This document shows, in pieces, positions 1,643-39,862 of a stretch of DNA of 64,000 nucleotides; position 1 is the first letter of the stretch; each line of letters starts with the position of its first letter. Under the pieces are notes generated by a model. It was not told the origin of the DNA, made no database searches, and saw nothing but the letters and a program-made list of their open reading frames with translations. Made by a program: the position numbers and the translations under genes. Location: positions 1,828 through 65,827 of the IMG/VR virus record IMGVR_UViG_3300048854_000073, one strand, 5' to 3'. Source of the DNA: a virus (Duplodnaviria > Caudoviricetes).

Positions 1643-3769
1643 CTACCAGTCGCCGACCGTCACCAACGTAGACTCCACCCAATTCGTCACCAGTTGCGGC
1701 TTGCGATCTGTCGGCATCGTGTAACGTTTCGTCGCGCGTTCCGCCATCACATCGAAGTGATGACGCGAAAAATAGCTCATCCCGGCCGCGAGAATGCGAT
1801 CATCCTTCTTCCCACTCTGATGATCCATGCGCGTCTTTCCGCTGGCCAATGTCTTGCGCTCCCACGCACGGCACTCTTCAATCAGCCACTTTGAATTCGG
1901 CTTGTACCATCCGTTGTTGATGGCATCCACGAAGCGACCTGTCAGCAAAGGACGCGTCACTGCGTTGGTGCGAAATCCCTGAATCACGCTGCGACCTTCG
2001 CGCGGGTGCTTGTGGTCGTACTGTGTGGCCGCATCGTGATGGTAGTTGAATCCCATCAGCTTCAATTGCAGTTGGCAATCATCACCCGTGCGCACGCGCT
2101 GTTCGATGCAGAACTTCACCCCACGCGGGTCCTTCGTCTTGCGTCCATACCACGCTGCCAGACAGGCTGCGAATCCAACCATCTGCGGAGCATTGACGCG
2201 GTTGTGAATGAACTCGCACACCTGCTCATCGCAGAACTCTCCGAAGACGTTGTGCGCCACCGAGAGCACCGATCGATCCTCATCCGGCGTGCCCAGCCCA
2301 TCGGCGGTATCGATGCCGAACGTGTAGTCGTAGCCCTCTTTCGGAGGCTCCCACACGCGCACGCGTCCAAGCGATGCCGCTTCGATGTCTTCGCTGCAGG
2401 GCTTCAGTGGAACCAACGCCCACTCATAGCGCTGACCACGATGCGAATTCCAGTAGACGCGAATCCGTTCCTTGTCGTAGTCAATCTCATCGTCAAGCGG
2501 CTCAAAGCCGTCATCGATGCTGTCGCCGATGATGGCGTAATCCTGAAACTTTTTGTTGCGCTCCCGGTCCAGCACCTCAATCACGTGATCTTCAAACACG
2601 GGATCGTTCTTACCCTGCAGCGCTTCAAAGTCGTCTGCTGGCATCTGCGAAAGCCAAATCTTCTGCGTGTTGGTCTTTACCGACTCGTCATAGTTGAACT
2701 CCCAATACCACTGTTGCTCCAGTGGCATCTTCCAGTTCTTCCCCATCACCTTGGCAAGATACGGCGTGTTGCGGATGTACACCTCGCAACGCGTCACATG
2801 CTTCCGCGTCTCTTTGTGCGGGCTCCAGCCTGCAGGAATCGGGAACTTGCGCAGCCAGTCCTTCTCCGGATACTGATCCGGCGCGCACGGCCATGAAAGA
2901 AAGATCGGGCATAGGCGCGCGCGTTTCTTCGGCCAGTCCTCTTTGATCGCGCGCCACTTGTTCGCCTGCCAGCCCGTGTTCCCGTTGCCGGTTCCTTCAT
3001 ACACCGCGAACAGCTTGCGCGTGGGGTGAGTCGCCTTGAACAGGCCTTCTTCCAGAACCTTCTGTGGATTCGGAATGTCGCCGATCTCCGAGATGTGTAC
3101 CAGCGTTGGCGTCCAACCCTGCGCGATACCGGTTGCCTGCGATCCTGACTGCACCGCCAGCACGGAGCCGTTGGCAAACTCCATCAGCTTGATTCGGTCT
3201 ACCGTCTGGCGCGGGATCAGCCACCACGGAAGATGCTTCAGGCAGATATCCATCATGCGGCCAAGCAGCTCCGATTTGTCGGCATTGATCGATGCCATGA
3301 CGGCCTGCGTGTTCTTCATGAACAACAGGCGATGCAGGAACTTCAAAGCCACTTTGGTGGAGACGCCGAGCTGACGCGCCTTCAACACCATCAACTCAAT
3401 CGGCCACTGCTCCTCATCGAACTCCGCGATGATCGAATCAAAGACCTCTTGCGACTGGCGATTCTGAAACTTGTAGATCGTCGCGCTGTTGTCGCTGATG
3501 TACGCATAGCGCGTCTCCCAATAGCTTGAATCGAGCGAGCAAAGAATCTGCTCGTTCTCGATCATGCGCCTGATCCAGTCCGCGCGCTGCGATGTCAGAC
3601 GCGTATTCAGGTCGATATAGCTATTGCGGGAGTTGGCGTCTACCTGCGTAATCGAGTCGATGTAAGCCTTGAACTCTTCCACCCACGCCAAAGAGTGATA
3701 CTCCGGCATCCACCCGTTGCGGCGTTCGAAGTCCACCAGATTTTGCAGGATGACGGATTGCGAGTACAT
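1643..3769 (-). CDS. terL: Terminase large subunit
   Basis: Walker A-like LKARQLGVST, Walker B-like LVHISE, nuclease motifs FGIDTADG and KKDDRILA; 708 aa. Confidence 0.93.
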   Translation of the reverse strand: MYSQSVILQNLVDFERRNGWMPEYHSLAWVEEFKAYIDSITQVDANSRNSYIDLNTRLTSQRADWIRRMIENEQILCSLDSSYWETRYAYISDNSATIYKFQNRQSQEVFDSIIAEFDEEQWPIELMVLKARQLGVSTKVALKFLHRLLFMKNTQAVMASINADKSELLGRMMDICLKHLPWWLIPRQTVDRIKLMEFANGSVLAVQSGSQATGIAQGWTPTLVHISEIGDIPNPQKVLEEGLFKATHPTRKLFAVYEGTGNGNTGWQANKWRAIKEDWPKKRARLCPIFLSWPCAPDQYPEKDWLRKFPIPAGWSPHKETRKHVTRCEVYIRNTPYLAKVMGKNWKMPLEQQWYWEFNYDESVKTNTQKIWLSQMPADDFEALQGKNDPVFEDHVIEVLDRERNKKFQDYAIIGDSIDDGFEPLDDEIDYDKERIRVYWNSHRGQRYEWALVPLKPCSEDIEAASLGRVRVWEPPKEGYDYTFGIDTADGLGTPDEDRSVLSVAHNVFGEFCDEQVCEFIHNRVNAPQMVGFAACLAAWYGRKTKDPRGVKFCIEQRVRTGDDCQLQLKLMGFNYHHDAATQYDHKHPREGRSVIQGFRTNAVTRPLLTGRFVDAINNGWYKPNSKWLIEECRAWERKTLASGKTRMDHQSGKKDDRILAAGMSYFSRHHFDVMAERATKRYTMPTDRKPQLVTNWVESTLVTVGDW

Positions 3770-3776
3770 CGTGCTG

Positions 3777-3794
3777 TGTAGCCTACAGCCTACA
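3777..3794. promoter_or_regulatory. 18-bp palindromic operator copy (TGTAGCCTACAGCCTACA)
   Basis: 7 bp upstream of the terL ATG. Confidence 0.75.
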
Positions 3795-3923
3795 CACGCT
3801 TCAAAACAAGTTCGTTAAGCACGAAAGGCCCCGGATCGCTCCGACGCCTTTCACGCCTACAAAGGAGAGACCTGCATGAGCAAGTCAGTGTCATTCTCGC
3901 CAATGACAGCTAAAGCCTACCAT

Positions 3924-3949
3924 AAAAAAGGCGGAGCCGAAGCCCCGCC
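3924..3949 (-). terminator. Rho-independent terminator
   Basis: Minus strand GGCGGGGC-TTCG-GCTCCGCC followed by TTTTTT. Confidence 0.85.
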
Positions 3950-3994
3950 AATCTGCCTTGTACGCAGTCTTATCGATGTACCTCTCGATGTGAT

Positions 3995-4198
3995 TTACAC
4001 CATACTCCGGTTACGTCTGGAGCGTACAGGCTGCGGATTCCACTTGCGGATCGGCACCTCGCGCAGCAGCTTTCGTGCTCCACACTTGCACACGCAATGC
4101 ATAAAGTGTCCTGCAGGCTCGATGCACTCATGCGTCTTCTCCGCCATCCCATGCTTCGACTCTTCATCCCATGTCTTCCCACACATGTCGTAACTCAA
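3995..4198 (-). CDS. Small Cys/His-rich hypothetical protein
   Basis: 67-aa ORF overlapping the upstream stop; HECIEPAGHFMHCVCKCG. Confidence 0.5.
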   Translation of the reverse strand: MSYDMCGKTWDEESKHGMAEKTHECIEPAGHFMHCVCKCGARKLLREVPIRKWNPQPVRSRRNRSMV

Positions 4199-4932
4199 TG
4201 GCCACGCTCCAACATGCGCGTGTTCTCCGGCAACAGCAAATCCTGCGTGCGCGTCAGGCTTGGAAACATGCGCTCCAGATCGTTCTCCACGGGCTCCAGA
4301 GAGAGCGCCGGAGCCGCATCGCCTGACTCTATCTCGCGCTTATTGCCCAATGGGTTGATGATGAACGTGCTCCCCTTGTTCGTAGGCAGAAAGCCGAGCG
4401 CCGTATCGAGCGCCGTGCGGTCTTTGTCGCCACCGGGCTCCAGCGCATACTTCACCCGGCTGGCCGTAATCCTCGGATGAGACGACAGCGCGATGATCTT
4501 CACCGCATTGGCGCTGTAGTGCTGCAGCGAAAGGATCGCGGAACCGAGAAGCCGCGTCGGGTCCACGTTGGCAACCAGCGCAATCGCCTCCCATGGAATG
4601 CATTCGCGATCTCGCTCCGGAATCAGATCGTAGCGCTCCAGAAAGGTGCGCACGTTCACATCGGCGGAGAAGCGCATCGCCTGTAGAACCTGTTTCAGGC
4701 CACCCTGCGATTGCTTCAGCAGAGAAGAGATATCCGGAACTTCCGCGATCTGCTCTTCAGTGACTTCGAGACGTTTTAGCGCGTCTTTCCGCCTGCTTTG
4801 CAGCTTTGTTGGCTTCAGTTTGGTTGAACCGTGTTTCTCTCCGGCCGATCCATTCTTCGTCGGACTCTTCACTGTAGCCCTGCGCTTCCCTGATTTGCTC
4901 TTCTTCGGTTTGACGATGTGTAACCGTGGCAT
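4195..4932 (-). CDS. Putative terminase small subunit
   Basis: Position upstream of terL, basic N-terminus, helical core, GAGGTG RBS; no diagnostic motif recognised. Confidence 0.5.
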   Translation of the reverse strand: MPRLHIVKPKKSKSGKRRATVKSPTKNGSAGEKHGSTKLKPTKLQSRRKDALKRLEVTEEQIAEVPDISSLLKQSQGGLKQVLQAMRFSADVNVRTFLERYDLIPERDRECIPWEAIALVANVDPTRLLGSAILSLQHYSANAVKIIALSSHPRITASRVKYALEPGGDKDRTALDTALGFLPTNKGSTFIINPLGNKREIESGDAAPALSLEPVENDLERMFPSLTRTQDLLLPENTRMLERGH

Positions 4933-5056
4933 CGATCACCTCTTCTGCTGGTCTTCGTTGCGGAAACCGGCGCTCAAACACATCGGCGATTCTTGCCACC
5001 GATTCGGCAAGAATCTCCAACGCTGAAGCCAGCCGTTCCGTCTGGTCGTCTCCCAT
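4757..5056 (-). CDS. Hypothetical protein (overlaps putative TerS 5' end)
   Basis: ATG 5056 after AGGAGG; helical LASALEILAESVARIADVF. Confidence 0.55.
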   Translation of the reverse strand: MGDDQTERLASALEILAESVARIADVFERRFPQRRPAEEVIDATVTHRQTEEEQIREAQGYSEESDEEWIGRRETRFNQTEANKAAKQAERRAKTSRSH

Positions 5057-5066
5057 CCATTCCCTC

Positions 5067-5474
5067 CTAGGCGGTTGCGGCTGCGACCTTCTTCGCATCC
5101 TTCTTCGCATAGCGAACGTGCTTCACCACAGAGCGGCCATCGGAGTCCTTCGTCTCTACCGGAACCGGCTGCGAAGTCTGCACCCGTACCTCGTTCGGCG
5201 GAGCGGGTTCGATGTCGAATTCGATCTCATGGGCCTCAATCGAATCCGGGTCCTGCGGCTTCACTCCCGCACTGCTCTCCGACTTGAAGGTCTCGGTGAT
5301 GAGCATGCCTGTATCGTGCAGCTCCAGATCAACCCGAATCTTTGCCGCCATCCAGTCATACGCGCTGTTCTGATTCAGGTAGCAGCTCTTCTGAAGCTGC
5401 GTTCTGATGTCATCCAGAACCGCTTCGATGACCTCGCCTCCGTTCAACTGCAGGTTCAACACCCTCTCCGGCAT
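5067..5474 (-). CDS. Hypothetical protein
   Basis: 135-aa ORF in operon context. Confidence 0.7.
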   Translation of the reverse strand: MPERVLNLQLNGGEVIEAVLDDIRTQLQKSCYLNQNSAYDWMAAKIRVDLELHDTGMLITETFKSESSAGVKPQDPDSIEAHEIEFDIEPAPPNEVRVQTSQPVPVETKDSDGRSVVKHVRYAKKDAKKVAAATA

Positions 5475-5486
5475 TCGCTCTCCTCG

Positions 5487-5747
5487 TTACTGGTTTACAG
5501 CCTCTTGTTCGAACTTGCGCTTCAGGCGATCAAACTTCGCCACAGTATTCGGCAATGGCATGCAAAGCCATTCCGGCCGCTTTTTGTTCCCATGTTCCAC
5601 GTATTGAACAGTCCTGCGCGAGATGCCAAGAATCTTGGCGAAATCGTCCTGAGACAGGAGGTGCTTACTGCGGAAATTCATCCAGTCATCGGCGATGGCT
5701 CTCTGTTCCGCAATCTGTTTGGCAGTCGGCGCTTTTGGTCGATTCAC
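5487..5747 (-). CDS. XRE/Cro-type HTH regulator
   Basis: LSQDDFAKILGISRRTVQYVEHG is an HTH_3 pattern. Confidence 0.85.
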   Translation of the reverse strand: MNRPKAPTAKQIAEQRAIADDWMNFRSKHLLSQDDFAKILGISRRTVQYVEHGNKKRPEWLCMPLPNTVAKFDRLKRKFEQEAVNQ

Positions 5748-5798
5748 TTCCCCTTTGCTCCTTCACTTGCGTCACTGCTTGCGCCATGCCCTCTATCC

Positions 5799-5816
5799 TG
5801 TAGGCTACAGCCCACA
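5799..5816. promoter_or_regulatory. 18-bp palindromic operator copy (TGTAGGCTACAGCCCACA)
   Basis: Intergenic, upstream of the HTH gene. Confidence 0.75.
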
Positions 5817-5819
5817 TTG

Positions 5820-6029
5820 TCAATTCTTAACTACACCGCGCAGTGTGCCGCACGCCTCTTTCATGCGGTCGGCCTTCAACTGCAGATCGTCCAATCGCTT
5901 CGCGTTCTCCAGCGAATAAGCTCTGATCTCATCGCGCATCTTCCGCATCCGTTCTTCGCTTCGGAATCCCACAAAAAGGCTTACCATCTGCGCCACCATC
6001 AGGATTGCTATGAGTCTTAGTCGCGCCAC
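5820..6029 (-). CDS. Small membrane-anchored coiled-coil protein
   Basis: Hydrophobic N-terminus followed by heptad-like segment. Confidence 0.5.
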   Translation of the reverse strand: MARLRLIAILMVAQMVSLFVGFRSEERMRKMRDEIRAYSLENAKRLDDLQLKADRMKEACGTLRGVVKN

Positions 6030-6203
6030 GCTTTCCTTCTTTCTTTACTGCAGGTCCGCAGTTCATCGAGCACTGACCGTCTTCCCAACAGTCACCGCAG
6101 GGCGGAATGGATCGAATGCCAAACCGGTAGTTGAAGATCACTTGCCTCCTTAATGGCGGAAGGCCGGAGCCACGTGCCTGTGTACCCCGACCTCCCGACT
6201 TCA

Positions 6204-6276
6204 TTTTTCGAGTGGGAATCGAACCCACTACCCTCTGATCCAAAATCAGATGCTCTACCAAGTGAGCTATCGAGTA
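6204..6276 (-). tRNA. Degenerate tRNA-Gln(UUG)-like element
   Basis: D arm GCTC-ACTTGGTA-GAGC, anticodon stem TCTGA/TCAGA with loop TT-TTG-GA, T arm GTGGG-TTCGATT-CCCAC; acceptor stem has mismatches at 2:71 and 3:70 and no CCA. Confidence 0.65.
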
Positions 6277-6279
6277 AGC

Positions 6280-6552
6280 GGACCTGAGTTGCTTCCACGT
6301 CGCTAACCTGAAGTGTCTTAGCCTGAAAACCGCTGCTCTACCACTGAGCTACCCTGCCATGGATTTTTGGGGGCAGGGACCGGATTCGAACCGGCGACCA
6401 CGGGTTGATTTCACTCCATCAGCTTCGCTTTGCTGTGCCGCAGGTTTGAGCCTGTTTGGGTGATAGCCTGAATGCCCCTGAGAAGGGCAGCGTGAGCCTC
6501 AACCTAAGCCTGAGCCTGAGCCTTGGACAACCTCTTTCGAGGCCACCCAAAT
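6280..6552 (-). ncRNA. Structured ncRNA with hexamer repeats and a circularly permuted tRNA-like domain (6328-6406)
   Basis: 8-bp closing helix 6544-6551/6455-6462, GAAA-tetraloop hairpin, ~13 YTCAGG-like hexamers; order T arm, 3' acceptor strand + CCA, 9-nt linker, 5' acceptor strand, D arm. Confidence 0.8.
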
Positions 6553-6554
6553 TG

Positions 6555-7316
6555 TTAGGCGGGTGACGGCTGGAAGATGTAATCCAGCAACGCTCCGCCA
6601 ATCTTGTTTACAGTAGGATCGATCTCCTCGCCATTGGCGCGAGAACGTGCCCTGCTGACCGCGCGCAGCAAGTCTTCGCCGCGCTCCAGAAACTTCGCCT
6701 TATCCGCAGGAGTAAGCATCGCCGACCACTCCTGCTCCAGAATCACACCAACGCGCTCGTCAACCGTCTCCTTCGCCACCTGCGCGGGATGCTTGTCTGT
6801 CGCCGGGGTGATGGTGATGTACTTGTCCTTCTTCTGCGTGCTGGTCTTCTTTACCTCGCGAGCCACATACACACCCGTCTCGCGCGCTGAATCCTGCGTG
6901 AAGCCCTTCGCCGGATCGAGCGTCGGGATCGTCTTGGCAAACTCCAACATCTCCCGCACGCGCTTCTCAAGCTGCAGCAAAGCGGTAGTCGGAACGTCCT
7001 TTGCAATCGTGGTTCCGTCCTCCGTGATGATGTCTGCTTTGGCGCGCGTGTTGGCCATGTCGATAGCGTAGGCCACATCAATGAATCGCATGGCGATGGG
7101 CTTCAGCCAGTCGATCTCCTTCCGCACCGTCGTCTGAATGTCGCTCTGCTCGCGCGTCTCCGGCAACTGACCTTCCGCGTCCGGGGTGTAGGTCACAATC
7201 TTCATGCCGAACAGATGTTTCTTATTCGCGAAGGTATGTTGCAGATCGGTTCTGCACTTCTCCGCCTGCCCCTTCAGGTTCGATTCGACTGCCAAAAGCT
7301 CATGCAACTTTGCCAT
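6555..7316 (-). CDS. Uncharacterised 253-aa helical-hairpin protein, candidate partner of the downstream ncRNA
   Basis: ATG 7316 after GAGGGG; MAKLHELLAVE...IDMANTRAKADI...LLQLEKRV...ATDKHPAQV...ARSRAN. From memory it resembles a widespread DUF family related to DIP1984/DUF6847 (unverified). Confidence 0.85.
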   Translation of the reverse strand: MAKLHELLAVESNLKGQAEKCRTDLQHTFANKKHLFGMKIVTYTPDAEGQLPETREQSDIQTTVRKEIDWLKPIAMRFIDVAYAIDMANTRAKADIITEDGTTIAKDVPTTALLQLEKRVREMLEFAKTIPTLDPAKGFTQDSARETGVYVAREVKKTSTQKKDKYITITPATDKHPAQVAKETVDERVGVILEQEWSAMLTPADKAKFLERGEDLLRAVSRARSRANGEEIDPTVNKIGGALLDYIFQPSPA

Positions 7317-7352
7317 AGGATTCCCCTCATGCCTCCTTGCGACTGAGAGAAA

Positions 7353-7382
7353 AATATAGCACGCTTGCGCTCTCACTTGCGC
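7353..7382 (-). promoter_or_regulatory. Promoter with extended -10 (TGCTATATT) and two GCGCAAGYG direct repeats
   Basis: Same architecture as the promoter at 12840-12869. Confidence 0.55.
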
Positions 7383-17252: not shown

Positions 17253-18053
17253 ATGTCAGAGACGACCAAAACAAACGGCAAAGAAGCTATCACCGAGGCA
17301 ATCGCAAAGTTGACTGCGATGCTGCAGGCAGGAAACAGCGATGCACTAACCGCGTACCTCAAAGCAATGGGCAACTTTCATAAGTATTCATGGGGCAATC
17401 AATTGCTCATCTGGACACAGTGCCCTGATGCAACGCGCGTTGCAGGCTTCAATGCGTGGAAGGATCATAACCGCTTTGTGAAAAAGGGTTCTAAGGCGAT
17501 TCGCATTCTCGCGCCAATGGTCGGAAAGAAGAAAGACGAAGCATCCGCAGAGGATAAAGCTTTTGTGTTTGGCTTCAGGTCTGTATGCGTCTTTGACGTG
17601 TCGCAAACTGATGGCGAGGCACTACCGGAGTTTGCAACTGCAACGGGTGACGCATCGCAAGCCTATCAAGGCCTGTTAGCGTATTGCGCGTCTAATGACA
17701 TCACAGTCACGGAAGACGTGGAAGACATCCTGCCTGCAAAAGGTATGTCTGAAGGTGGATCAATCAAGCTTGCACCTTGCAGCAATGGCGCTGAACTGTT
17801 CAGCACCTTCACCCATGAAGTCGCGCATGAACTGATGCACAAGGGTGACAAACGCAAAGGCACCACAAAGAACTCCCGCGAGCTTGAAGCGGAGGCCGTT
17901 GCGTTTATCGTCGGTTCCTCTATCGGGCTGGACATGACGACATCAAGCGTTGATTACATCAAGCTCTATAACGGCGATGCGGATGGGTTCGCATCATCCC
18001 TTGAAATCATCTCGCGAACGGCATCCATCATTTTGGATGCCGTTGCAGCGTAA
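17253..18053 (+). CDS. ardC: ArdC-like anti-restriction / ssDNA-binding protein with metallopeptidase-like domain
   Basis: FHKYSWGNQLLI...ATRVAGFNAWK...VFDVSQTDG (ArdC N-domain); HEVAHELMH...ELEAEAVAF (HExxH). Confidence 0.85.
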   Translation: MSETTKTNGKEAITEAIAKLTAMLQAGNSDALTAYLKAMGNFHKYSWGNQLLIWTQCPDATRVAGFNAWKDHNRFVKKGSKAIRILAPMVGKKKDEASAEDKAFVFGFRSVCVFDVSQTDGEALPEFATATGDASQAYQGLLAYCASNDITVTEDVEDILPAKGMSEGGSIKLAPCSNGAELFSTFTHEVAHELMHKGDKRKGTTKNSRELEAEAVAFIVGSSIGLDMTTSSVDYIKLYNGDADGFASSLEIISRTASIILDAVAA

Positions 18054-18087
18054 AACCCATTACCCAATAAAAAGGAGAATTTTCGCC

Positions 18088-18474
18088 ATGATGACCACAG
18101 CACTAGTCCAACGCTTGAACACACTGCACAACGGAACAGAGGCGCAAAAATCGCTGTCACGTCGTATTGTCGCAATATTGGACGCCTGCGAACACATCGC
18201 ACAACTCGCAACTGATGAACGCCCTTCAATGGTCCATCTACGCGAGCATGTACGGTTCATAGGCGAAATGCAGGCGCGCCTTGAAGACGCGCTGACAGAG
18301 ATGGAAACAGCCACAAAGGCGCAACCTCAAACGAAGTACAAAGTTCAACAGTTGACGCTTGGTGAAACTGCGGCCAAAGTTCCAACTTGGCAAGATACCA
18401 ATTACTCCACGCTGAAAGAAGCTCGCGCAGCAAACCCGAATCAACTCGCATCGTTCTTTCGTCGCAGAGACTAA
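18088..18474 (+). CDS. Hypothetical early protein
   Basis: AAAGGAGA RBS. Confidence 0.7.
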   Translation: MMTTALVQRLNTLHNGTEAQKSLSRRIVAILDACEHIAQLATDERPSMVHLREHVRFIGEMQARLEDALTEMETATKAQPQTKYKVQQLTLGETAAKVPTWQDTNYSTLKEARAANPNQLASFFRRRD

Positions 18475-18485
18475 AACAGCTAACA

Positions 18486-18539
18486 GGTCGAAACGGCCAT
18501 CTATGGCCGTCTGCATGTAAAGCATGCACTGATGAGACC
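18486..18539 (+). ncRNA. Type II hammerhead ribozyme 1
   Basis: GGTC-GAAAC-GGCCAT/ATGGCC-GTC^-TGCATG/CATGCA-CTGATGA-GACC; predicted cleavage after 18511. Confidence 0.92.
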
Positions 18540-18568
18540 AACGTCAGGCACTAAAGGAGAAAAACAAA

Positions 18569-18970
18569 ATGAACAGCCAGATGCTAAACGCCAACCCTGC
18601 ACTCAAAGCAATCGTTACTGCAGCATTCCCCAACTATCGCAAAACCAAAGCATCAATAAGCGAATTCAACGCTGAACACGGCAAAAACATCAACTCCTAT
18701 TGGGATGGGGGAAGCCGTGACGAATATGCCATCGTTCACATTGCGACACGTCAGCGAAAGGCCCTCCCAACGTCAACCCATCCCTTTTATGACCTTGCCG
18801 GAGTGGCGAACACAGAGAACCGTGATGTCATCGTAGACGAACGGGGCAATGCCACCCTCAAGCGTCTACCTGCAGGTTTCGCACTGGTACAGGCTGGAAC
18901 CTTTTGCGGCAAGCAAGCGACAGCCACAGTCTATTTATCACCTGATGACACGCCCAAACTACTCCCATAG
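18569..18970 (+). CDS. Hypothetical early protein
   Basis: AAAGGAGA RBS; SYWDGGSR motif. Confidence 0.8.
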   Translation: MNSQMLNANPALKAIVTAAFPNYRKTKASISEFNAEHGKNINSYWDGGSRDEYAIVHIATRQRKALPTSTHPFYDLAGVANTENRDVIVDERGNATLKRLPAGFALVQAGTFCGKQATATVYLSPDDTPKLLP

Positions 18971-19024
18971 GTCGAAACGGCCTGTATAGGCCGTCTACGC
19001 GTGCATGCGCGTACCGATGAGACC
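18970..19024 (+). ncRNA. Type II hammerhead ribozyme 2 (U4C core variant)
   Basis: GGTC-GAAAC-GGCCT/AGGCC-GTC^-TACGCG/CGCGTA-CCGATGA-GACC; predicted cleavage after 18995. Confidence 0.85.
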
Positions 19025-19049
19025 GCACCACAAAGGAGATTTACTCGCT

Positions 19050-19637
19050 ATGCAATTCAGATTAACTATCGATCTACCCGGCAAGCGCGACGACTTCCAA
19101 ACCGTCCGCGATGGACTCAAAAGCGCCCTGATAAATGTTGGCGCAAAAAGCTATTGTGCTAAACCTACTCCCACAGTTGGCGATGCGGGTCCTGTATTGG
19201 ACGATGAGCGCCAAAACCAAATAGGCCAATGGACGGTTATTCCTACTCCCGAGGCATTCAACGGTTCGAAGATATTGCGCGATGCAATGCGCAAAAGCGA
19301 CTTTCTAACGGCCTATGTGGAGGCCCTTTTCTTTACAGAGGTCACTCCCGATTCTGACGAGTCAATGCAGGATAAAGACGTTGATGATGTTTCTTTTGCC
19401 CTCGCGCGTCAGCTCATCCATGACTGCGCGGTGTTTGAAGCTGCACACGACCGCGAGATTGATTCCGATTATAAAAGCGCTGGACATGACTTCTGGCTGA
19501 CGCGTAATGGGCACGGCGCTGGCTTCTGGGATGGCGACTGGCCAGAAGAAGAAGGTGAACGTATGACAGCCACCTCAAAGGCCTTTGGCGAGTGCGAGAT
19601 TTACGCGGGTGACGACGGCCTGCTCTATTCCATGTAA
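19050..19637 (+). CDS. Conserved hypothetical early protein
   Basis: RBS-supported ATG 19050; AGHDFWLTRNGHGAGFWD motif. Confidence 0.8.
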   Translation: MQFRLTIDLPGKRDDFQTVRDGLKSALINVGAKSYCAKPTPTVGDAGPVLDDERQNQIGQWTVIPTPEAFNGSKILRDAMRKSDFLTAYVEALFFTEVTPDSDESMQDKDVDDVSFALARQLIHDCAVFEAAHDREIDSDYKSAGHDFWLTRNGHGAGFWDGDWPEEEGERMTATSKAFGECEIYAGDDGLLYSM

Positions 19638-19665
19638 CTGATACCCAACCCAAAAAGGAGAACAC

Positions 19666-19890
19666 ATGCCTCGCCTGACCAAAGAAGAAAACACCTATAA
19701 CGCACGCGCAATTTTGCACCTCTGCAATTGCCCTGTAGGTGGAGACTTTCACAAGCTATCAACCGACCAAGTAAACGCCTTATTGTTCGAGGCTGACAGA
19801 GTGAAGTATCGAAAGCCTAAAGACGCCAACGGTTCGCGGGCGCGTTCCTTCCACGCGATGCTTCAACGTCGCGCAGGTTCCACCAACTAA
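19666..19890 (+). CDS. Hypothetical early protein
   Basis: AAAGGAGA RBS. Confidence 0.75.
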   Translation: MPRLTKEENTYNARAILHLCNCPVGGDFHKLSTDQVNALLFEADRVKYRKPKDANGSRARSFHAMLQRRAGSTN

Positions 19891-19942
19891 ACGCAACACC
19901 AACCCAACGCGCCACCAGCGCAAACCTAAAGGAGTTACACCG

Positions 19943-20293
19943 ATGAACGACACACCCGCAACCCTGACATATAGCAACCCACGCATGAAAGCGGTAATTG
20001 AAAACTGGCCTAGCGGTTCCAAACGAGTGACAGCCATCTTTGAGATTGAGAAGAGACCCGGCAAGGGTGAACGCGGCACGCGTGCCACTACAGGCGCGGC
20101 TAAAACCCTTACCTATGCCGATAAGGCGCGCATCGTGGACGGAAGTGATGGGCGGACATACATCGCAGAGCTAACGATGTATGGCTTTATCAGCATCATG
20201 CGCAGCGATATGAAAATCCAGCATGAATCCATCTTTCAAAAGGACCCACGTTATCCGGAAGTGTTCGAGCTATTTGCCGTAGATGTGGAATAG
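19943..20293 (+). CDS. Hypothetical early protein
   Basis: AAAGGAG RBS. Confidence 0.75.
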   Translation: MNDTPATLTYSNPRMKAVIENWPSGSKRVTAIFEIEKRPGKGERGTRATTGAAKTLTYADKARIVDGSDGRTYIAELTMYGFISIMRSDMKIQHESIFQKDPRYPEVFELFAVDVE

Positions 20294-20345
20294 GTCGAAA
20301 CGGGCATCATGCCCGTCCATGCGTTATGCGCATGCTGACGAGACC
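20293..20345 (+). ncRNA. Type II hammerhead ribozyme 3
   Basis: GGTC-GAAAC-GGGCA/TGCCC-GTC^-CATGCG/CGCATG-CTGACGA-GACC; predicted cleavage after 20317. Confidence 0.9.
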
Positions 20346-20377: not shown

Positions 20378-20803
20378 ATGAACTACGCCGAACTACAGCA
20401 ATACTCCCATAACAACGGATGGGCAACCAAGCGTTTAGAACAGGCCAACACAACCAACACCGAACTGCTCGCCAAATACCAGAAGCACATAGACGCGCGC
20501 TCCTTCATCGCTGTAGGTGACTTTGTACGCGATGGAGACAAGCTTCTGCGTGTCGCACATCATTGGGGAGACAGCCTGCAACTTACAGATGGCCGTTTCG
20601 GCGCATCCTTCTACCTCGGCAGAGATGGAAACTGCAGCTTCAGCGGAGGCCTCAATCCGGGCATCTCTATCGACCGGTTCCAGCCTACAGGCGAACGGCG
20701 CGAGGGCTCATGCTGGTTTTTCTCTGAGGAACGGGTTGAGGCGCATAACGGGTATCACACCTCTGCCAATTTTCACGTTTGGGATCTCGCGCGCGAAAAA
20801 TAG
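20378..20803 (+). CDS. Hypothetical early protein
   Basis: AAAGGAGA RBS. Confidence 0.75.
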   Translation: MNYAELQQYSHNNGWATKRLEQANTTNTELLAKYQKHIDARSFIAVGDFVRDGDKLLRVAHHWGDSLQLTDGRFGASFYLGRDGNCSFSGGLNPGISIDRFQPTGERREGSCWFFSEERVEAHNGYHTSANFHVWDLAREK

Positions 20804-22067: not shown

Positions 22068-22328
22068 GTGAAAACAAAGAAGACAGTCAAAACACCCCGT
22101 CGCTCCAAGGGGACCGTGGAACAGGTGGAGACACGCTTCGGCGACCGCTTGAAGTCTCTCCGGCTAAAGCAAGGGCTCACACAAAAAGACCTCGCCGATC
22201 AATGGGGCTTGGATCGCAGTCACTATGTCCATCTTGAGCATGGAGACGTAAACGCCAGCCTGCAAATGCTCGAAGCCATCTCGATAGGATTCGGCATAAC
22301 TCTGTCCGAACTCCTGAAAGGCGTATAA
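22068..22328 (+). CDS. XRE-family HTH repressor (C-protein-like)
   Basis: FGDRLKSLRLKQGLTQKDLA...RSHYVHLEHG...LEAISIGFGITLSELL. Confidence 0.9.
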   Translation: MKTKKTVKTPRRSKGTVEQVETRFGDRLKSLRLKQGLTQKDLADQWGLDRSHYVHLEHGDVNASLQMLEAISIGFGITLSELLKGV

Positions 22329-22849: not shown

Positions 22850-22948
22850 ACCGTGCGTCTATTGTGAGCGACCCGCAAATAAATTCAGCGAACATTGCCC
22901 GATGCGAAAATTCGGGCCATGCACCGCAGCAGCGAAAAAGGGGACCAA

Positions 22949-23614
22949 ATGACCGAACCTTGCTTTGCTTACCTACGTGTCTCCGGCCTTGGTCAGCTAG
23001 ACGGTGATGGCTTCGACCGACAGTTCAACGCCTGCAGCAAGTATGCTGCAGCCCACAATTGGGACCTGACGGAAGTCTTCCGGGAGGAGGGAGTCTGCGG
23101 AGCCAATGAGCTGGAGAATAGACCGGCCCTGCAACGCCTTCTGGCAGCTCTTGAGGCCTCCAACTGCAAAACCATCCTGATAGAGCGCCTTGACCGGTTA
23201 GCGCGCGATCTGATGGTGCAGGAAACCATCATCGCCGACCTCCGCAAGAGTGGTTACCAGATTATCTCCACCATGGAGCCCGATCTGTGCTCTGACGATC
23301 CTAGCCGCAAGCTGATGCGCCAGATATTCGGAGCCATCGCCGAATATGACAGGGCGATGACTGTCCTGAAACTACGTGGAGCCCGTGAGCGTAAACGCGC
23401 ACGTCACGGACGCTGCGAAGGACGGAAACCATTCGGCTTCCACCCGGAGGAAGCGGTTACGCTGGCGGCTATCGTCTCCCACAAAGAGCTTGGTCTGACC
23501 TGCAAACAAATCGCCGAGACCTTCAACCTGCGTCAAGTAGCCTCCAGAACCGGCCGTCCGTGGACCGGACCCGTGGTTGCAAAGATACTCAGGCGTCAGG
23601 TTACCTCCAGATAA
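22949..23614 (+). CDS. Serine recombinase (resolvase/invertase-type)
   Basis: YLRVS catalytic motif, RPAL, ERLDRLARD, short C-terminal DNA-binding domain. Confidence 0.92.
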   Translation: MTEPCFAYLRVSGLGQLDGDGFDRQFNACSKYAAAHNWDLTEVFREEGVCGANELENRPALQRLLAALEASNCKTILIERLDRLARDLMVQETIIADLRKSGYQIISTMEPDLCSDDPSRKLMRQIFGAIAEYDRAMTVLKLRGARERKRARHGRCEGRKPFGFHPEEAVTLAAIVSHKELGLTCKQIAETFNLRQVASRTGRPWTGPVVAKILRRQVTSR

Positions 23615-38602: not shown

Positions 38603-39862
38603 ATGTCCGTCTATCGTCAAAAAGGGAAACAAACGTTCATCATGGACTTCTGGTTTCAGGGCCAGAGAATCCGTGAATCCACCGGAGCCTCCACCAAAAA
38701 CCTTGCACTCAAAGTGGAGCGCAATCGTAAGACCGGGCTCGAAGAGGGCAAAGCCGGAGTCCAGAAACCGAAGAAGATGCCCTTCTTCGCGAACGCTGCC
38801 GATGACTTCCTAGACAAGCGCTGGAAGTCTGTACCGGGCGGAAGAGAACAGAAGGACGGCAAGGGTGCAACCGTCCTGATCGATCAGGGCAACATCGTCC
38901 ACCTCAAACCGCACTTCGGCAAAACACTCCTCTGCGACATCTCGCCCACCGCCGTCTCCAACTATCAGCACATGCGCCTGAAGGAGGGCGCAGCACCGAA
39001 GACCGTCAATCTGGAGCTTGGCACCTTCCGCTCCATTCTCACGCCCTCCGGTCATTGGACACGCCTGCTGCCAGAGGTGGACATGCTGGAGGTTCACAAC
39101 GATGTCGGCGTGGCCCTCACGGGCGAACAGCAGGCCGCTCTGGAGAAAGCCTGCAGTCAGTCACTCTCCCGGATACTCTACCCGCTCATGATCGTTTTGG
39201 TTGAAACCGGCGTGCGCATAGGAGCGATCACAAAACTGAAATGGGAGACTGTGGACTTCGTGGGCGGAGGCCTCCGCATCGGGAAGGACAAGACAAAGGC
39301 AGGACGCAGGACCGTACCTATCACCCGGAGAGCGATGGCAGTTCTGGAGATGTGGGCGGAAAACTACCCGAAGCGGAAACCCGATCACTACGTCTTCCCA
39401 CAAGAGATGTACCGCCTGAAAAAAGGGCAGGCTGAAATGGAGCTGGTGAGCGTCGATCCCACCAAGCACGTAGGCAGCGTCAAGCGTTCATGGGCTACAG
39501 CTTTGGATCGCGCTGCGTGGATGCTGGCAGGCTCGCCGACGGAAGAAGAGATGGCCGAGGTGGGGACCAAGTACCCACCCCTGAAATGCCGTCCGCACGA
39601 TCTCCGCCACACCGCCGTCACCCACCTGATCCAGACCAAGACTCCCCTTCCGATCATTGCGCAGCTCGTAGGCTGGAGCCCGTCGCAGATGATCCTGATG
39701 GCAGCACGTTACGGCCACTACGAGATGGATATCTTGCGCGATGCAATCGAGACCGCAAGCGATCACTCGCGCATCCGACGCACTCCACAGAAGCCTGTCA
39801 GGGGTGGGGACTTTGGTGGGGACCCCAAAGCTAAAACGCGGGTTAGCGCGGGATATGCGTGA
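38603..39862 (+). CDS. int: Tyrosine integrase
   Basis: ETGVR, KTKAG, HDLRHT, LVGW, RYGH catalytic set; N-terminal arm-binding domain. Confidence 0.95.
   Translation: MSVYRQKGKQTFIMDFWFQGQRIRESTGASTKNLALKVERNRKTGLEEGKAGVQKPKKMPFFANAADDFLDKRWKSVPGGREQKDGKGATVLIDQGNIVHLKPHFGKTLLCDISPTAVSNYQHMRLKEGAAPKTVNLELGTFRSILTPSGHWTRLLPEVDMLEVHNDVGVALTGEQQAALEKACSQSLSRILYPLMIVLVETGVRIGAITKLKWETVDFVGGGLRIGKDKTKAGRRTVPITRRAMAVLEMWAENYPKRKPDHYVFPQEMYRLKKGQAEMELVSVDPTKHVGSVKRSWATALDRAAWMLAGSPTEEEMAEVGTKYPPLKCRPHDLRHTAVTHLIQTKTPLPIIAQLVGWSPSQMILMAARYGHYEMDILRDAIETASDHSRIRRTPQKPVRGGDFGGDPKAKTRVSAGYA

Follow-up and report, generated by a model that had tools for sequence, protein, structure and literature searches.

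Type II hammerhead ribozymes have been described in prophages, where multiple copies often flank genes or short gene blocks, an arrangement that implies the processing of long transcripts (Perreault et al. 2011, PMC3088659). Three tandem hammerhead arrays were cleaved during in vitro transcription, and a triple array from A. tumefaciens, which flanks the anti-restriction gene ardA, was cleaved in E. coli (PMC3088659). Type II hammerheads typically contain a pseudoknot between loop I and the 3' tail, and many of them depend on it for rapid cutting (PMC3088659). In D. vulgaris three type II hammerheads near phage genes were active in vivo as judged by cyPhyRNA-seq (PMC8782182), which shows that such motifs do cleave in cells. 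Here we describe three type II hammerhead motifs, HH1, HH2 and HH3, in the virus record IMGVR_UViG_3300048854_000073. The window, that is the whole stretch of DNA analyzed, comprises 64 kb of this 65.8-kb record. The analysis of sequence and predicted structure confirmed that the three motifs are real and lie at the coordinates listed in Table 1. They are likely to be working or near-working self-cleaving ribozymes at the junctions of a block of small co-directional genes, which would cut the operon into hairpin-capped units.

The locus resembles the published prophage arrays in that the motifs are of type II, the copies lie on the same strand and flank single genes or short blocks of varying identity, and the motifs are proposed to divide a long phage transcript into mRNAs of gene length. 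The likeness to the A. tumefaciens array includes an anti-restriction gene alongside, which is ardA there and a gene with an ArdC N-terminal domain here. The first-pass annotation of the window had regarded the arrangement as fairly novel. This could not be upheld, because clustered gene-flanking prophage hammerheads that process polycistronic RNA were published in 2011 (PMC3088659), and the locus reveals no new principle. Nevertheless, there are differences. Most of the type II examples of Perreault et al. contain the pseudoknot and often have a stem II of 1-2 bp, whereas in the copies described here stem II is fixed at 4 bp and no pseudoknot is convincing; instead, A(-1) and a U in loop I are conserved. 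Cleavage was demonstrated for the published arrays and is predicted for the motifs of this locus. The Desulfovibrio vulgaris hammerheads are likewise of type II and located near phage-like or hypothetical genes, two of them close together, but they belong to another organism, have other sequences, and an operon-punctuating layout was not described for them (PMC8782182). The nearest Rfam family is RF02276 Hammerhead_II (clan CL00010). It was the best Rfam family for HH1 and HH2, with an alignment spanning the full length of the model, but all three motifs miss its gathering score of 37.

The order of elements is the same in each copy: GGUC, GAAA, C, the stem III hairpin, GUC, the stem I hairpin, a 7-base core and GACC. 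The final GACC pairs with the first four bases (GGUC) to form stem II, and because stem II is the open stem the permutation is that of type II. The structure-aware scan gave stem lengths of 4 bp for stem II, 6 bp for stem III (counting the C-G pair) and 7 bp for stem I including a U-G pair. When the three segments were folded alone, the three-way junction was both the minimum free energy and the centroid structure in all cases, with a z-score of -3.6 for HH1. The positions that define the hammerhead core (C3 U4 G5 A6 N7 G8 A9, G12 A13 A14, A15.1-U16.1, H17 and G10.1-C11.1) carry the expected bases throughout HH1 and HH3, and HH2 deviates only at U4, which is replaced by C. The conserved A just 5' of the motif is located at 18485 in HH1. 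The sequences of stem I and stem III vary among the three copies with no loss of pairing, whereas stem II does not vary.

At their 5' ends HH2 and HH3 overlap with the preceding gene: the G of the TAG stop codon (18968-18970 of ORF 18569-18970 and 20291-20293 of ORF 19943-20293; ORF, open reading frame) is at the same time the first base of stem II. The TAA upstream of HH1 ends at 18474, 11 nt 5' of the motif. On the other side, the distance to the ribosome binding site (RBS) AAAGGAG is 13 nt in HH1, 7 nt in HH2 and 14 nt in HH3, followed by ATG codons at 18569, 19050 and 20378. Much of this had been anticipated by the first-pass annotation. Sequence, folds and the covariance model R1 (see below) bear out its shared plan GGTC-GAAAC-stem III-GTC-stem I-core-GACC with compensated stems at three positions, and the folds and core positions agree, apart from U4 of HH2, with its assignment to the type II catalytic core. 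The GUC sites at 18511, 18995 and 20317 lie where it had placed them, and each motif is indeed located at or just after a stop codon, with two copies overlapping the TAG. Its estimate of about 10-20 nt between motif and AAAGGAG was roughly right.

A loose sequence-only pattern produced 4 matches compared with 1.8 expected, which is not significant alone, and an Rfam scan of the window at gathering thresholds reported the tRNA alone and no hammerhead. Because the loose pattern was not significant and the Rfam scores were below threshold, we used structure-aware scans and a covariance model of our own. One pattern was restricted to the 5' half of the motif (stem II strand, GAAAC, stem III, GUC) and the 3' half was left unconstrained. 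This exact pattern matched at least 119 viral-contig stretches, and in 85 of 125 matches the unconstrained half completed a full canonical hammerhead. In phage loci totalling about 1.1 Mb the structure-aware scan identified 149 complete motifs, compared with 2 in the reversed control; across all controls the scans gave 0-2 matches, compared with 108-149 observed. The covariance model R1 was built from 52 gap-free copies of other phages, with this phage and its sister left out. Using this model, HH1 scored 66.9 bits (E 2.8e-18), HH2 53.8 bits (E 3.4e-14) and HH3 68.7 bits (E 7.6e-19), and no further match was found, whether in the window or across the complete record of 65.8 kb. Double-sided changes occurred in 11 of 16 pairs among the 52 subfamily members, a count that is partly circular as these sequences were selected for pairing; the unbiased figure is the completion of the motif in the half-pattern matches. 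Stem I showed up to 4-5 pair types per position. The explanation that the resemblance arose by chance or that the motifs are dead relics, in either case without RNA function, can point to the missed Rfam gathering threshold and to the result of the loose pattern, but the R1 E-values of 1e-14 to 1e-19, the near-empty controls, the compensated stems and the fixed placement leave it with next to no probability.

The subfamily to which the three motifs belong is compact, with most copies 52-55 nt in length, a stem II that is nearly always GGUC/GACC, and a G-C closed stem I of 6 bp. In the viral-contig set, 109 of 110 copies have an A directly 5' of stem II, and loop I invariably starts with U. Both positions are outside the search pattern that was used to gather this first set, and their conservation suggests a putative tertiary contact between loop and flank in place of the pseudoknot. 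The loop-I U together with the G-C closing pair is compatible with such a contact. Of 111 strictly formed unique copies, 108 had a perfect core; two independent copies with U4C (HH2 of the window and a copy in locus L044) and one with G5C did not. Deviating cores were recorded at L110:4409, L010:6432 and L092:9642, one of them with G5C (CUCAUGA) and two in which an additional U separates A9 from G10.1 (…GAUGA-U-GACC); these copies may be inactive or tolerated variants. Assigned by genome, exact-pattern matches came from Acidobacteriota, Gastranaerophilales, Synergistaceae, Burkholderiales, Rhizobiales and Verrucomicrobiota, and from one metagenome-assembled genome of Methanobacteriaceae. Arrays of 2-9 copies on the same strand are common in the subfamily loci. 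The arrays with one hammerhead per gene junction include 9 copies in L107 (IMGVR_UViG_3300028072_000006, 2909-6800), 6 in L037 and 3 in L133. For comparison with Rfam we scanned eight other loci (L107, L037, L097, L100, L111, L133, L261 and L248) with RF02276, and all 15 copies reported had 28-35 bits. Since these scores are below the gathering score of 37, threshold-based Rfam annotation misses the subfamily.

The position of the motif between stop codon and RBS is a property of the subfamily as well. The stop codon of an ORF at least 50 codons long was located within -25 to +3 of the motif start in 94 of 105 hammerheads (random positions, 10.8%), and an RBS with the start of an ORF no shorter than 40 codons followed within 70 nt downstream in 86 of 105 (random positions, 21.5%). 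Both features were combined in 72% of the hammerheads but in only 3.1% of random positions. All nine R1 matches in a separate, independent set of 80 phage loci, picked by one protein family, were on the gene strand. A further measure, the location of the motif inside a long open frame (65/105), was discarded, as the motif lacks stop codons in two of its three frames.

Table 1. Positions of the hammerhead motifs and of other features in the window.
Feature	Position	Strand	Details
HH1, type II hammerhead	18486..18539	+	sequence, fold, covariance model; GUC 18509-18511, predicted cut after C18511
HH1, parts	18486..18539	+	stem II 18486-89/18536-39; GAAA 18490-93; stem III hairpin 18494-18509; stem I hairpin 18512-18528; core CUGAUGA 18529-35
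HH1, alternative hairpin	18529..18547	+	core CUGAUG (18529-34) can pair with 3' tail CGUCAG (18542-47)
HH2, type II hammerhead	18970..19024	+	core CCGAUGA (U4C); GUC 18993-18995, predicted cut after C18995; loop I of 6 nt, not 5
HH3, type II hammerhead	20293..20345	+	core CUGACGA; GUC 20315-20317, predicted cut after C20317
Gene with ArdC N-terminal domain (anti-restriction, single-stranded DNA binding)	17253..18053	+	Pfam PF08401, E 3e-11; PHROG 7245; upstream of the hammerheads
ORF upstream of HH1	17950..18474	+	frame open from 17950, likely ATG near 18088; no family match
ORF between HH1 and HH2, 133 amino acids	18569..18970	+	AAAGGAG 18553-59; no family match; lacking in the sister phage
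ORF 3' of HH2, 195 amino acids	19050..19637	+	AAAGGAG 19032-38; version of the sister phage 79% identical
Two ORFs, 19666-19890 and 19943-20293	19666..20293	+	no hammerhead between them; second ends in HH3
ORF 3' of HH3, 141 amino acids	20378..20803	+	AAAGGAG 20360-66; lacking in the sister phage
Cro/CI-type helix-turn-helix gene	22068..22328		downstream of the hammerheads
Serine recombinase/invertase	22895..23614	+	
Tyrosine integrase	38603..39862	+	
tRNA-Gln	6204..6276	-	anticodon UUG; two non-standard acceptor-stem pairs in the Rfam alignment
Candidate RNA adjoining tRNA-Gln	6305..6419	-	sub-threshold match to YrlA (RF02553, Y-RNA-like), 37 bits against gathering score 69, E 1.8e-4 over the window
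DUF7873 protein	6555..7376	-	

From the identity and placement of the motifs and the family-wide architecture we infer cleavage and an effect on expression. During transcription of the polycistronic RNA each motif would fold and then cut after the GUC. The 5' product would contain the stop codon plus about 25 nt, with the stem III hairpin at its end and a terminal 2',3'-cyclic phosphate; because the stop codon is retained, ribosomes could still terminate normally. The 3' product would open directly with the stem I hairpin, flush at its 5' end and carrying a 5'-hydroxyl there, with the RBS 7-14 nt past the motif. Folding of the products predicted terminal hairpins on both of them and a flush stem I hairpin at the beginning of the 3' product, in agreement with the 5' hairpin that the first-pass annotation had predicted for the downstream RNA. 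In the case of HH1, the spent core and the tail would make a second hairpin on the 3' product, a structure which was also obtained by folding of the precursor and the products. HH3 has a weaker version of this hairpin (20335-40 with 20348-53) that contains one A-C mismatch. Cutting at all three sites would divide the operon into units that end at 18511, extend from 18512 to 18995 and from 18996 to 20317, and begin at 20318. The ends of these units would be capped by hairpins and would lack the 5' phosphates that are sensed by bacterial decay enzymes; ends of this kind should resist end-dependent decay. In this way the stability and translation of each cassette would be uncoupled from its neighbours without the need for a host nuclease. 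The net effect would be a host-independent punctuation of the operon, with cassettes insulated from each other.

Processing of this kind has a counterpart, pointed out in the first-pass annotation, in the early mRNA of phage T7, where intercistronic cuts by RNase III leave stable monocistronic messages with hairpin ends. The T7 process requires a host protein enzyme and leaves a 5'-phosphate and a 3'-OH, whereas self-cutting RNA would leave a 5'-OH and a cyclic phosphate at this locus. As an analogy of function the comparison is apt. Another comparison is with synthetic ribozyme insulators such as RiboJ, in which a hammerhead just 5' of the RBS removes upstream context and an added 3' hairpin exposes the RBS, resembling the core-tail hairpin of HH1. 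RiboJ, however, is an engineered type III hammerhead from a satellite RNA, unlike a natural type II element of phages.

Several points weigh against efficient self-cleavage and the role derived from it. When Rfam RF02276 was applied with an E-value threshold, HH1 reached 28.5 bits and HH2 29.3 bits, both below the gathering score, and HH3 was unreported even when a stretch of 151 nt was searched at E<=10. The search with a type II model proposed in the first-pass annotation thus detected HH1 and HH2 as sub-threshold matches but not HH3. By inspection, no loop-I/3'-tail pseudoknot of at least 4 bp was found in HH1 or HH3, and one of 3-4 bp at most in HH2; because the pseudoknot is absent or marginal, the speed of cleavage at physiological Mg2+ is uncertain. 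According to the folding analysis, the active fold of HH1 has a competitor in the uncut full-length precursor, namely the core-tail hairpin. [quoted passage not shown] HH2 is thus probably a slower ribozyme, though not necessarily dead. The idea of the first-pass annotation that U4C may tune the rate agrees with these data. Furthermore, we infer from general knowledge of 5'-end-dependent decay that cleavage would stabilize rather than destabilize the messages. Finally, according to a review from 2019, what such ribozymes are for has yet to be defined and more work is needed (PMC6765202). With these points included, the interpretation of the first-pass annotation as a whole is partly supported.

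The alternative hairpin is not restricted to the window. Tails complementary to the core were present in 25 of 205 subfamily copies compared with 5.9 +/- 2.3 in shuffles, and N7 co-varied with its partner in the tail (C-G 5 times, U-A 9 times, U-G 3 times). This gives moderate support for the core-tail hairpin as a putative feature of the subfamily, considering that the copies are not all independent. It also bears on an unlikely explanation, in which real ribozymes tune expression downward or differentially: downstream genes would be detached from the promoter-proximal message, unequal cut rates, fast in HH1 and HH3, slow in HH2 with U4C and affected in HH1 by competition from the tail hairpin, would set dose or timing, and hairpin capping would play no role. 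The copies do differ in features relevant for the rate, namely U4C in HH2 and the competing hairpin in HH1, the latter type of hairpin occurs in 12% of the subfamily with co-variation, and regulated or slow cleavage of phage variants was raised by Perreault et al. (PMC3088659). Graded control is, however, difficult to reconcile with the very uniform layout of stop codon, motif and RBS and with 97% perfect cores, which point to constitutive processing, and the terminal hairpins are constant on both products.

A comparison with a sister phage (G001, 66.1 kb; loci L111 and L126), which is syntenic in this region with about 45-85% amino-acid identity per segment, provided additional information. 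The sister phage has exactly three hammerheads as well, and a single one is conserved in position, after the homologue of ORF 19943-20293. Across the three window copies and the three of the sister, stems I and III vary in sequence and are paired throughout. Compared with HH3 both hairpins of this copy are entirely different in sequence while pairing is kept, so that the two sequences can be read as a natural compensatory-change experiment. The remaining copies of the sister are located at other junctions, and one of them directly abuts the stop codon of the gene with the ArdC N-terminal domain. One sister copy is a mosaic of the window copies, in which stem III corresponds to that of HH2, stem I to that of HH3 and the tail to that of HH1, and leaders up to the ATG are common to non-homologous genes. 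In two more distant relatives of ORF 19943-20293 (L005 and L006) no hammerhead was found after the gene. The differing junctions, the mosaic copy and the shared leaders indicate that the motifs mark junctions of cassette exchange, and perhaps they mediate the exchange at these junctions.

These findings can also be explained by a unit of about 95 nt, consisting of the motif and the leader to the start codon, that serves mainly as a portable junction for the swapping of small genes by homologous recombination, with ribozyme activity being secondary and decaying in copies like HH2. The partly different junctions of the three sister copies, the absence of ORFs 18569-18970 and 20378-20803 from the sister, the mosaic copy, the leaders shared by non-homologous genes and the distant relatives without a motif are all in favor of it. 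A mere homology patch, however, would not hold the catalytic bases invariant while stems I and III change in a compensatory manner, nor would it fix the sense strand and the register to stop codon and RBS, and we regard this explanation as improbable. It is compatible with ribozyme function and does not exclude it. A combination, in which motif and leader form a portable self-insulating junction for gene exchange and the core-tail hairpin acts as a refolding switch after cleavage in a subset of the copies, seems rather unlikely, though likelier than the circular RNAs considered below.

If the ribozymes cut at all three sites, as preferred here, two fragments with cleavage-derived ends on both sides would be generated, 18512-18995 (484 nt) and 18996-20317 (1322 nt). 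It is conceivable that such fragments are closed again as circular mRNAs bearing an RBS, or spliced together, by the reverse hammerhead reaction or by an RtcB-type ligase of the host. Ends with 5'-OH and cyclic phosphate have the chemistry that is joined by RtcB, and since the strands of stem II are identical in all three copies the fragment ends could rebuild a nicked hammerhead. Changes of stem II in arrays, however, are always compensated within the copy, and compatibility in trans is retained at only 6 of the 26 neighbour junctions where stem II differs. On this comparison of cis and trans pairing the formation of circular or spliced RNA was largely rejected. Such products were also sought and not found by Perreault et al. 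(PMC3088659), and we consider their formation very improbable.

The three copies span 1.86 kb on the plus strand and bracket one gene and then a block of three genes (Table 1). Searches of Pfam, PHROGs and the ESM Atlas assigned no function to the ORFs flanked by hammerheads, and locus searches with single proteins found no relatives for ORFs 18569-18970 and 19050-19637. The C-terminal region of the protein encoded by ORF 19050-19637, about 110 amino acids in length, corresponds to a very widespread phage domain that has no Pfam entry. This domain gave 6638 matches, mostly to stand-alone proteins of 115-125 amino acids, and was present in 507 viral loci; it contains an invariant HDFWLTRNGHGAGFWDG-like block (especially 19467-19547) with conservation at the DNA level in Brevundimonas and Erwinia phages. 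The location of the gene with the ArdC N-terminal domain upstream of the hammerheads and of the Cro/CI-type helix-turn-helix gene downstream makes it plausible, although unproven, that the block is part of an early operon. Scans for promoters and terminators were uninformative, and the promoter scan gave fewer sites than in shuffles. Its genes include those for the terminase large subunit, major head protein, primase/helicase, tyrosine integrase and serine recombinase, and by this content the virus is a temperate tailed phage. The record has direct terminal repeats.

A candidate for a second RNA feature lies distant from the hammerheads on the minus strand, next to the gene for tRNA-Gln. The segment at 6305-6419 shows clear elements resembling a T arm and a D arm, with their order permuted, and it may represent a tRNA-like or Y-RNA-like RNA encoded by the phage. 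Among the neighbouring ORFs scanned, neither Ro nor RtcB was detected.

Taken together, the survey adds to the known prophage arrays a large and compact subfamily with a 4-bp stem II and no convincing pseudoknot, which is distributed in phages and prophages of many phyla and lies below the Rfam threshold. Its members keep a near-fixed register from the stop codon to the RBS and mark junctions at which close phage relatives differ in their genes. These regularities point to a concrete role for the ribozymes in these phages, namely host-independent punctuation of operons combined with the insulation of cassettes, and the motifs may be considered compact natural parts for the design of synthetic operons.

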